A stretch of 64,000 nucleotides of DNA from a virus, in the UHGV virus genome UHGV-0132893; one strand, given 5' to 3'. Of the stretch, positions 17,689 through 19,392 are shown one piece after another (the stretch's first letter is position 1; each line of letters starts with the position of its first letter). A program made the translations under genes and the position numbers. The notes below the pieces were generated by a model. It was not told the origin of the DNA. It was given only the letters and a program-made list of their open reading frames with translations, and did not search any database.

Positions 17689-17846
17689 TCACTTAAGAGT
17701 CTTCTAAGAGGGTTTTTAAGTGATGTGAGGTATGGTAGTGTTCTGTTCGGTACGGTGTGGCACGGTAATGCTAGGTCTGGTCAGGTCGGGTCAGGTGCGG
17801 TACAGTATGGGTAGTTAGTCTCATCTACATTAAAATGAGACTTACC
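17689..17846. repeat. GGTNN pentamer-array element R1 (5' box, about 16 pentamers, 3' hairpin)
   Basis: ggtat ggtag tgttc ... ggtca ggtcg ggtca periodicity; hairpin agtctcat/atgagact with loop ctacattaaa. Confidence 0.7.
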
Positions 17847-17990
17847 TTTTTAAAAGGTCTTTAAGAGGGTTTTTTAATGAGGTAGGGTAAAGTAATGTTT
17901 GGTCTGGTTTGGTAAGGCGCGGTCTGGTTTGGTAAGGTAAGGTTCGGTATGGTATGGGTGGATGGTAGTAGCCACGTTAAAAATCTACCA
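17847..17990. repeat. GGTNN pentamer-array element R2
   Basis: ggtct ggttt ggtaa ggcgc ggtct ggttt ggtaa ggtaa ...; hairpin tggtag/ctacca. Confidence 0.7.
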
Positions 17991-18065
17991 AGTTTCTAAA
18001 GAGTCTTCTGTTGAGGGTTCTTTACAAACAACTTAACAATCAACTAAAGTATGGAGCTAAATGCT

Positions 18066-18653
18066 ATGAAACTGTTAAATATCAAAATCACTGGTACTCG
18101 TCCTTTCTTGAGCCATAACGATACGTTGTCAGACCCATTAAACCCTCTGACAAAATATCACAAGTCTCTGTCCAGTAAACGTAAAAAGACTGACGAAGAC
18201 TATGCGCTCTTAGCAGAAAGTCAACTGGTAACTTCTTGTTACTACGATGAGCAGCTTGGTTTTGTTATGAACGGTGAGATGATTGAGGCTTGTATCAAGT
18301 CTGGTGCGAAACTCAACAAACTTGGTAAGGTAATTGACCGAGCCATTATGCTGACAGATGTAGTCTTCCCAATGACTATCAAGAACTGTCCAGCAAACCC
18401 ACAAGAACTTGCTAAGAATCCAGACTTCATCTATGCTAAGTCTGTTAAGATTGGTACAGCACGAGTTATGAGCTACCGTCCAATCTTCCGTGACTGGTCT
18501 GTAGAGTTCGGTTTGATGTTCGATGAAGAGCAAATCACCAAAGAGGAACTCTTGATGGTTCTGGAAAATGCTGGTAACCTTTGCGGTGTAGGTGATTGGC
18601 GTCCACGCTTTGGTCGTTTTTCTGTAGAAGTTATTTCAGAAGGTAACGTTTAA
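18066..18653 (+). CDS. hypothetical protein (cassette gene 1 flanked by R elements)
   Basis: ORF track 18051..18653; ATG 18066 has GGAG at better spacing. Confidence 0.45.
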
Positions 18654-18655
18654 TT

Positions 18656-19096
18656 ATGAATACAAAAGCATTAGCAGCAAAGTTTAGTTACGGTGACACT
18701 GTATCACACTCTGAGATGGACACCTTCTTAGGTATTGTGAAGCCAACTTATCAAGGTGACATTGTTAAGTACGAAGATGAAATGAAGGCTTATGCGCTTA
18801 CACGTCTAAACCGACTTGAGAAGTTTATTGAGAAGCTTCTTAAAGAAGAGAAGATTTATCTGGTTGCTTCAATGGGTGTTGGTTATCGTGTGGTTGAACC
18901 TAAGCATCAAGCAACTATTGCAAAACGTAAAATGTCTGGTAAGATTGGTCGCGCTTTAAAGCAAGCCACTCAAGCGATTGAGAATGTGAACACTATGGCA
19001 CTTAGCCATCAAGAACGCTCACGACTGATTGAACAGCAAAACCATTTAGCTGCTATGAAAGCTAACATTAACAAGCAACGTAGAAAACCTTTCTAA
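18656..19096 (+). CDS. hypothetical protein (cassette gene 2)
   Basis: 146-aa ORF, 2-nt gap from upstream gene. Confidence 0.45.
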   Translation: MNTKALAAKFSYGDTVSHSEMDTFLGIVKPTYQGDIVKYEDEMKAYALTRLNRLEKFIEKLLKEEKIYLVASMGVGYRVVEPKHQATIAKRKMSGKIGRALKQATQAIENVNTMALSHQERSRLIEQQNHLAAMKANINKQRRKPF

Positions 19097-19107
19097 GTTG
19101 ACTAGGT

Positions 19108-19130
19108 AGCCTCTTCGGAGGCTCCTTTTT
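19108..19130 (+). terminator. rho-independent terminator
   Basis: agcctc-ttcg-gaggct stem then cc-TTTTT. Confidence 0.55.
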
Positions 19131-19260
19131 AAAAGGTCTTTAAGAGGGTCTTTTAATAAGGTAAGGCACGGTTATGTCAGGTATGGTACGGTACGGTTAG
19201 GTAAGGTGAGGCGGAGTAAGGTATGGGTAGTTAATCGGAGCTACATTAAAATTCGATTAC
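19126..19260. repeat. GGTNN pentamer-array element R3
   Basis: 5' box like R2, 3' hairpin like R1 with compensatory stem (taatcg/cgatta). Confidence 0.7.
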
Positions 19261-19392
19261 ATCACTTAAGAGTCTTTTAAGAGGGTTTTTAAGTGAGGTG
19301 TGGCACGGTAATGTTAGGTAGGGTCAGGTCAGGTCAGGTGAGGTAAGGTGATGTATGGAAGGATGGCAGTAGCCTTATAAAAAATCTGCCAA
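19261..19392. repeat. GGTNN pentamer-array element R4
   Basis: 5' box like R1, 3' hairpin like R2 with compensatory stem (tggcag/ctgcca). Confidence 0.7.

Follow-up and report, generated by a model that had tools for sequence, protein, structure and literature searches.

The closest described counterpart of the DNA considered here is VIPR (Viral Interference Programmable Repeat), which was described between April and June 2026 in two preprints (bioRxiv 10.64898/2026.04.26.720920 and 10.64898/2026.04.26.720927, hereafter the VIPR preprints). In this system Vipr, a minimal RAMP protein of about 20 kDa, works with guide RNAs named vrRNAs, each made of 9–16 YNNGG repeats and a hairpin- and pseudoknot-forming tail of about 40 nt. 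One Vipr protomer is bound per unit, with the GGY bases flipped out and buried and the two N bases presented; the presented dinucleotides pair with double-stranded DNA in the target pattern xNN xNN, and the R-loop triplex blocks transcription. For the phage SUSP1, the same preprints report expression of the vrRNAs during infection, with small-RNA sequencing, Vipr pull-down, cryo-EM and GFP or lambda assays. They also report that the accessory gene vap1 enhances repression, that reprogramming the NN dinucleotides redirects repression, and that most guides of the SUSP1 clade target a phage satellite found in E. coli genomes. VIPR has been proposed as a form of RNA-guided DNA recognition older than CRISPR, with a non-contiguous guide code. 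Here, a 64,000-nt stretch of the virus genome UHGV-0132893 (the window) was analysed, and its region 17629–19438 is almost certainly a complete type II VIPR locus (vrRNAs–vipr–vap1) of the SUSP1 clade, within a Felix O1-like phage.

The decisive identification was a sequence search of the Protein Data Bank (PDB) with the open reading frame (ORF) 18066–18653. Its product matched chain D of entry 36pp, “SUSP1 Vipr protein”, with an E-value of 6e-128 and 191 of 195 residues identical, which exceeds the 90% identity that defines the SUSP1 clade in the VIPR preprints. The RNA- and DNA-contacting residues listed there (H17, K33, R39, E71, M72, K82, G87, K88, R138, C173, D177, W178 and R179) are all present in the window protein according to its alignment with the PDB chain; position 175 is V in both, while the preprint text gives T175. 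The product of the following ORF is identical at 145 of 146 residues to that of the second gene (after vipr) of the SUSP1 locus (contig L017, 90,743 bp). The two genes are:

18066–18653 (+): vipr, 195 aa, RAMP-type protein polymerising on GGY repeats (PDB 36pp_D match; phrog_4652)
18656–19096 (+): accessory gene vap1, 146 aa (phrog_5926)

Neither Vipr nor vap1 had a match in Pfam, NCBIfam or PADLOC, and their PHROGs matches are families of unknown function. The neighbours of the locus are a DNA ligase and small proteins of unknown function, and no cas genes are found beside vipr. All six of the six distant loci with a Vipr homologue (37–40% identity) have GGY-period arrays adjoining the gene. 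The genome carrying the locus is that of a Felix O1-like myophage of the genus Felixounavirus, and the locus matches 231 phage records at 80–99% identity.

In addition to near-identical Vipr and vap1, the window locus shares with SUSP1 the order vrRNAs, vipr, vap1, vrRNAs, the GGY/NN repeat, the hairpin–pseudoknot tail and, with the 1-nt skip, guide matches in the same family of E. coli satellites, and every sequence feature of the SUSP1 system was found in it. It differs in having 2 + 2 vrRNAs instead of 1 + 3 (L017) and in its guide sequences, one of which (R2) was targetless in our scans. The locus belongs to the published SUSP1 VIPR clade, and the system is therefore already known. A previous description of the same DNA, made from its letters without database searches (the sequence-only reading), had reported four pentamer-array elements bracketing a two-gene cassette and had not recognised them from described phage elements, which is understandable but out of date given the VIPR preprints and the solved structure of a near-identical protein. 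It was right that the elements belong with the two-gene cassette and that the pentamer array is a periodic protein-binding RNA. What it missed is that the first gene of the cassette encodes the array-binding protein and that the NN dinucleotides are guide sequence, and its interpretation is thus partly supported. No Rfam family reached the gathering score anywhere in the window, and a search at E up to 10 across 17550–19500 returned noise alone; GGTNN repeats are mentioned neither in the Felix O1 genome paper (PMC3185647) nor in the PhageMaP preprint. For annotation, the value of the identification is that two “hypothetical” genes become vipr and vap1 and four intergenic arrays become vrRNA genes. 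That the RNA component of VIPR was singled out from raw sequence alone also means that such systems can be spotted from sequence.

The arrays were located by counting GGT at 5-nt spacing across 12 units on both strands of the window. A periodicity of at least 6/12 was found in four clusters only, all on the + strand (17719–17834, 17856–17986, 19135–19245 and 19277–19382), against a maximum of 4/12 anywhere on the − strand, and Tandem Repeats Finder together with a repeat finder returned the same four arrays with the same shared flanks. The four arrays are real and far beyond chance, and they lie where they had been placed before, on the + strand and nowhere else in the 64 kb. They had also been taken as non-coding, which agrees with their being the vrRNA guide tracts:

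17729–17808 (+): guide tract of vrRNA R1, 16 GGYNN units, or possibly one more with the degenerate TGTGA at 17724
17881–17955 (+): guide tract of vrRNA R2, 15 units
19160–19224 (+): guide tract of vrRNA R3, 13 units
19297–19356 (+): guide tract of vrRNA R4, 12 units, preceded by an AGTGA unit

The degenerate leading unit of each array overlaps the conserved box upstream of it, and counting such units adds one per array; the 14–16 units initially proposed have to be replaced by 16, 15, 13 and 12. Unit composition was determined on 80 arrays, 60 of them unique, which came from 20 loci: that of the window and 19 in related phages. Among the unique arrays, position 1 is G at a frequency of 0.82, position 2 is G at 0.98 and position 3 is a pyrimidine at 1.0, while N4 and N5 have an entropy of 1.9 bits each: GGY is fixed and NN hypervariable. 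Approximately 18% of the units begin with T or A (xGY). This amends the GGTNN consensus put forward by the sequence-only reading. The boxes and tails around the arrays are nearly invariant among the related phage loci. The functional unit is the array together with its 3′ tail, each window element being one vrRNA of roughly 95–120 nt (12–16 GGYNN units and a tail of about 35 nt). The number of vrRNAs varies from 1 to 5 among close relatives (L001–L019, with clusters on both sides of vipr–vap1). Identical guides were seen to recur at the same position in different phages, namely the R2 guide in three Felixounavirus loci (L003, L004 and L006), and R4-like guides recur in L001, L004, L006 and L007.

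The guide function of the NN dinucleotides was assessed with the targeting rule of the VIPR preprints (NN pairs with DNA, one DNA base is skipped per unit), scored with our own script on 11 fetched satellites. The scores were:

R1: 31/34 over all units with a 1-nt skip; shuffled maximum 23; best with skips of 0, 2 or 3 nt 20–21; core 0.93 on satellites against 0.63 in the window
R2: 21/32 over all units with a 1-nt skip; shuffled maximum 23; best with skips of 0, 2 or 3 nt 21–24; core 0.71 on satellites against 0.68 in the window
R3: 25/28 over all units with a 1-nt skip; shuffled maximum 21; best with skips of 0, 2 or 3 nt 19–20; core 0.96 on satellites against 0.71 in the window
R4: 21/26 over all units with a 1-nt skip; shuffled maximum 20; best with skips of 0, 2 or 3 nt 17–18; core 0.86 on satellites against 0.73 in the window

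Counting core units, R1 (28/30), R3 (23/24) and R4 (19/22) match a phage satellite of approximately 12 kb in E. coli, and 21 of the 22 first positions match when R4 is taken with its preceding AGTGA unit. Since the scores on the window itself (0.63–0.73) are at background, the guides do not target their own phage. The target of R1 lies in a satellite ORF of 185 aa, and the skipped base is the codon wobble position. The predicted sites are, for instance, 8388–8438 of L032 (NZ_CP016546.1) for R1, and 13568–13609 and 10629–10667 of L027 for R3 and R4, respectively. Family-wide, 53 of the 60 unique guides reach an NN match of at least 80% with the 1-nt skip, compared with 3, 9 and 7 of 60 with skips of 0, 2 and 3 nt, respectively, and 4 when shuffled. 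The published 1-nt-skip rule and the satellite target were thus reproduced independently, on 60 guides, with different data and different code.

These matches bear directly on one alternative, in which the RNAs are decoys or sponges titrating a ring-shaped or multimeric RNA-binding protein and NN carries no information. TRAP binds 11 (G/U)AG repeats with spacers of 2–3 nt, and CsrB binds CsrA. The window arrays share with the trp leader bound by TRAP and with CsrB-type RNAs a short fixed motif at regular spacing and one protein subunit per copy, and the strict 5-nt period of a fixed trinucleotide and a free dinucleotide does resemble TRAP binding sites; that R2 has no identifiable target also agrees with a sponge. 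However, the spacers of TRAP and CsrB targets carry no information, the RNA regulating or titrating the protein, whereas the spacer dinucleotides of the window are the guide, with 53 of 60 guides matching satellite DNA under one spacing rule only. The binding protein encoded in the locus is moreover the solved Vipr filament protein, and changing NN is reported to redirect repression. We consider a sponge very improbable.

The satellite was found in a BLAST search of the locus against complete E. coli genomes, which returned vrRNA-like genes in 152 genomes, within an island of about 12 kb. Of 5426 E. coli genomes, 568 (about 10% of complete genomes) carry this island, which occurs for example in strains EC12 and O177:H21. 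Its products are a serine recombinase, an HNH endonuclease, baseplate and tape-measure proteins and several proteins of unknown function, together with one vrRNA; no vipr gene was found in it. Neither Pfam nor PHROGs gave a match for the satellite proteins targeted by the guides. The baseplate protein of the satellite shares 75% amino acid identity with its homologue in the window (32424–33188 (−)), and the tape-measure protein 31% with its own (33857–35437 (−)), which fits a satellite exploiting the tail assembly of this phage group. Considering that three guides target this satellite and that it carries homologues of phage baseplate and tape-measure proteins, the locus most likely serves the phage as a weapon against an element that parasitises it. 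Transcription would start at the promoter at 17629–17656, with longer transcripts reading through the terminator after vap1; the vrRNAs may be released or bounded at G·U-rich box hairpins; and guides R1, R3 and R4 would direct Vipr to the satellite, suppressing an element that steals phage structural machinery.

The vrRNA encoded by the satellite itself (L027 13966–14030, with the same guide in L031 10821–10885) was also scored with the 1-nt skip, and 22 of 24 NN positions match a host intergenic site (L027 18552–18587, TAGGCCTGATAAGCATAGCGCATCAGGCAGTTTTGC). This site is a REP-type repeat, present in 12–46 copies in each of the 5426 E. coli genomes. By our own estimate, the chance expectation of such a match is approximately 4e-6, and the satellite guide may be aimed at host REP elements.

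Several points weigh against the identification of the locus as a working VIPR system directed at this satellite. The base skipped by R4, in a satellite ORF of 109 aa, is codon position 2 and not the wobble position, and R3 matches unannotated satellite DNA, where the skipped base is not at a wobble position either. No target of R2 was found on the 11 satellites (its 0.71 being background), and in pattern scans of IMG/VR and metagenomes no match went further than the forced units. R3 and R4 come after a good intrinsic terminator and have no promoter of their own. Their expression would nevertheless be expected by analogy, as the same terminator precedes the three downstream vrRNAs of SUSP1, which were detected according to the preprints. 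From the near-identity to SUSP1, vrRNAs of about 100 nt that co-purify with Vipr and repress their targets would likewise be expected in this phage. The mechanism itself is known from preprints, not from peer-reviewed papers.

Two sets of candidate targets for R2 were rejected. The single match of an IMG/VR scan with 10 guide units, in the tail-fibre gene of Hafnia phage yong1, reaches 23/32 overall, is in a phage of an unrelated host and is absent from E. coli genomes, and was attributed to chance. Five metagenome matches in low-GC contigs were also discarded, none of them extending past the forced units.

The 3′ ends of the vrRNAs were compared across 84 tails (25 unique), including those of satellite-encoded vrRNAs, all of which can be parsed in sequence analysis as a hairpin and a 4-bp pseudoknot. 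The partners of the pseudoknot are the 4 nt directly after the last unit and bases of the hairpin loop. The tails of the window are:

17809–17846 (+): R1 tail, class 1a; stem AGUCUCAU/AUGAGACU, pseudoknot GUAG:CUAC
17956–17990 (+): R2 tail, class 2; stem UGGUAG/CUACCA, pseudoknot GUGG:CCAC
19225–19260 (+): R3 tail, class 1b; stem UAAUCGGA/UUCGAUUA, pseudoknot GUAG:CUAC
19357–19392 (+): R4 tail, class 2′; stem UGGCAG/CUGCCA, pseudoknot AAGG:CCUU

Covariation comprises three sets of pseudoknot pairs (GUAG:CUAC, GUGG:CCAC and AAGG:CCUU), one CUUU wobble variant and at least four compensatory stem variants, which confirms and extends the compensatory changes already noticed in the window stems. 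The loop had been described as conserved; its variable “NNN” is not free, as it pairs with the 4 nt after the array in the pseudoknot. The tail class depends on position: a vrRNA followed by another vrRNA has a class-1 tail, and the last vrRNA of a cluster has a class-2 tail.

Signals flanking these elements were found on the + strand:

17629–17656 (+): putative sigma-70-type promoter TTGACA-16-TATACT, 11/12 in a consensus scan
19108–19130 (+): intrinsic terminator after vap1, stem 19108–19123 followed by a T-run
19391–19438 (+): inverted repeat that closes the locus and overlaps the next gene's promoter, TTGACA-17-TATTTT (10/12)

The promoter and the terminator before the second vrRNA pair had both been pointed out in the sequence-only reading and were recovered here. 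The promoter would drive the upstream vrRNA pair and probably also vipr–vap1.

The 5′ boxes, which had been noted as conserved, are indeed so. They are also hairpins themselves, which had been missed:

17686–17726 (+): box A hairpin 5′ of R1, 19 contiguous pairs including G·U; −22.5 kcal/mol, z −3.9 (+) against −1.1 (−)
17843–17884 (+): box B hairpin between R1 and R2; −12.6 kcal/mol, z −2.2 (+) against −0.9 (−); aligns with box A
17992–18029 (+): box A′ hairpin between R2 and the vipr mRNA; −13.6 kcal/mol, z −2.7
19124–19161 (+): box B hairpin 5′ of R3, from alignment and folding
19258–19300 (+): box A hairpin between R3 and R4; −14.4 kcal/mol, z −4.0

Boxes A, B and A′ align as one hairpin of 15 bp, the individual box hairpins having about 15–19 bp. 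In the alignment, 5 pairs are changed on both sides and 4 positions are G·U or U·G in nearly all copies. The folding z-scores are between −2.2 and −4.0 on the + strand and about −1 on the − strand. Since the boxes fold well on the + strand only and depend on G·U pairs, the structure is one of RNA and not of DNA; of the two forms of selected secondary structure suggested earlier, RNA or DNA cruciform, the first is upheld and the second is not.

The same evidence argues against the next alternative, that the arrays act as DNA, as iterons, an R-loop-prone replication origin or a packaging site beside replication genes. It would agree with the strong excess of G over C that the non-template strand shows after a strong promoter, and with the adjoining genes for DNA polymerase and ligase. 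The box and tail structures, however, need G·U pairs, fold well on one strand and show compensatory changes in their stems. Felix O1 replicates without vipr–vap and with a single remnant array, the copy number ranges from 1 to 5 among close relatives, and satellites without a replication-gene context carry the same kind of RNA gene. A replication or packaging site, one of the roles initially proposed, is contradicted by the strand-specific RNA structure and by the external target matches, and we give a DNA-level function hardly any credence.

That the repeats are primarily the recombination boundaries of a mobile two-gene cassette was a further suggestion. It is in line with the shuffling of box and tail modules between copies, for which the scheme first proposed (box A in R1 and R4, box B in R2 and R3; tail 1 in R1 and R3, tail 2 in R2 and R4) was found to be accurate. 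The clean loss of vipr–vap between box A and the class-2′ tail in Felix O1 also fits, as does the fact that 80% or more of the locus is covered in just 116 of the 231 related records. But the idea leaves the conservation of GGY, the hypervariability of NN and the target matches all unexplained, no recombinase is present in the cassette, and recombination between modules is the expected side effect of having several similar RNA genes. Boundaries as the function of the repeats are thus highly unlikely; as a side effect, recombination is visible in the copy number of 1 to 5 and in the loss of vipr–vap from Felix O1. This Salmonella phage (AF320576.1, L043 2600–2730) has neither vipr nor vap1. What remains between its ligase gene and the next gene, the promoter with a single box A, a degenerate array of about 10 units and a class-2′ tail, looks like the result of a deletion by recombination between flanking vrRNA modules. 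Early candidates for the arrays, considered before the PDB match, were sponge RNA of the TRAP or CsrB kind, a G-quadruplex array in two tiers, an R-loop origin similar to immunoglobulin switch pentamers, and primase sites; all were dropped once the protein had been identified and targets of the NN code had been found.

Within the VIPR identification, the box hairpins raise the question of how the vrRNA ends are set. A box stands in front of every phage vrRNA and of the vipr mRNA, while the single-copy vrRNA genes of satellites have none, begin in an upstream sequence of a different kind and end at a terminator of their own. No sigma-70-like site inside the boxes passes our promoter scan; a weak promoter-like site (18021–18050, 9/12) is overlapped by box A′. 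For the four SUSP1 vrRNAs, the array and tail together come to about 85–110 nt (estimated from the L017 arrays), and the reported size of about 100 nt fits only without the box of about 40 nt, which is why the box is probably outside the mature RNA. In other VIPR types, hammerhead ribozymes sit between the vrRNAs, according to the VIPR preprints; the text of neither preprint mentions hairpins between vrRNAs. Given its strand specificity, its place before every phage vrRNA, the size fit and the ribozymes of the other types, the box can tentatively be read as a processing or boundary hairpin, serving as a substrate for a host enzyme of the RNase III type or as a stop to filament growth. Slightly more speculative is the view of the boxes as a dedicated, repeat-like module that sets the 5′ ends of the vrRNAs through cleavage by RNase III, cleavage by Vipr or a stop to filament growth in the 3′-to-5′ direction. 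If this were the case, the phage arrays would be built as “hairpin repeat – guide – handle”, with the box as the functional counterpart of the hammerhead ribozymes; the box might then foreshadow the CRISPR repeat, and the tail-class rule would belong to the same processing logic.

This comparison extends to class 1 CRISPR-Cas and its Cas7 filament. In both systems, the protein that polymerises along the guide RNA has the RAMP fold, a thumb and a G-rich loop, the thumb breaks up the guide–target duplex at regular intervals, and the guide is capped by a structured handle. VIPR differs in being phage-encoded, in its non-contiguous guide and in having neither a repeat–spacer array nor adaptation genes; in each 5-nt period, just 2 guide bases are read and one target base is skipped, compared with 5 of 6 read in class 1 CRISPR. 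Repeat searches of the locus found no repeat–spacer array, its sole repeats being the 5-nt units, the boxes and the tails. With regard to function, Seed et al. are said to have described in 2013 that Vibrio phage ICP1 encodes a CRISPR-Cas system against the PLE satellite. In both cases a lytic phage has an RNA-guided system aimed at a chromosomal satellite that parasitises it. The ICP1 system, however, is a complete type I-F CRISPR-Cas with nuclease and spacer acquisition, whereas VIPR is reported to repress by binding and has no acquisition machinery. Four leads from the present analysis go beyond the text of the VIPR preprints: the hairpins between vrRNAs, the position-dependent tail classes, the conserved orphan guide R2 and the satellite guide matching host REP elements.

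Two of the distant VIPR loci have features of their own. In a distant phage contig (L025 2866–4320, Vipr 37% identical), four GGTNN arrays directly abut vipr-like and vap-like genes. These arrays occupy the 5′ leaders of the genes, every one of them has a T-run at its end, and they are without the boxes or tails of Felixounavirus; the vap-like protein has no significant similarity to vap1 (E 3.3). Another locus, with GGCNN arrays, has between two vrRNAs an element (L022 3638–3688) that may be a tRNA-like processing module, judging by its terminal stem of 6 bp and a hairpin resembling a T-arm (GGGTGCGAATCCC). Searches with ARAGORN and Rfam found nothing tRNA-like and no ribozyme in this element or in the spacers of distant VIPR loci.

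A few observations concern annotation and the rest of the window. Several Felixounavirus genomes deposited in GenBank have extra “hypothetical protein” coding sequences wrongly annotated across vrRNA arrays, and in the TransTermHP-based annotation of phage ASO1B a tail hairpin and a box hairpin are labelled “terminators”. Short CAA-rich tandem motifs (CTTAACAAACAA and relatives) are found in intergenic leaders of the window, at 18020–18045 (just upstream of vipr), 3706–3730, 54564–54589 and 63545–63597, and may be unstructured, translation-enhancing leaders. The window also contains 26 tRNA genes clustered at 47145–52398 (−), which is typical of Felix O1-like phages.

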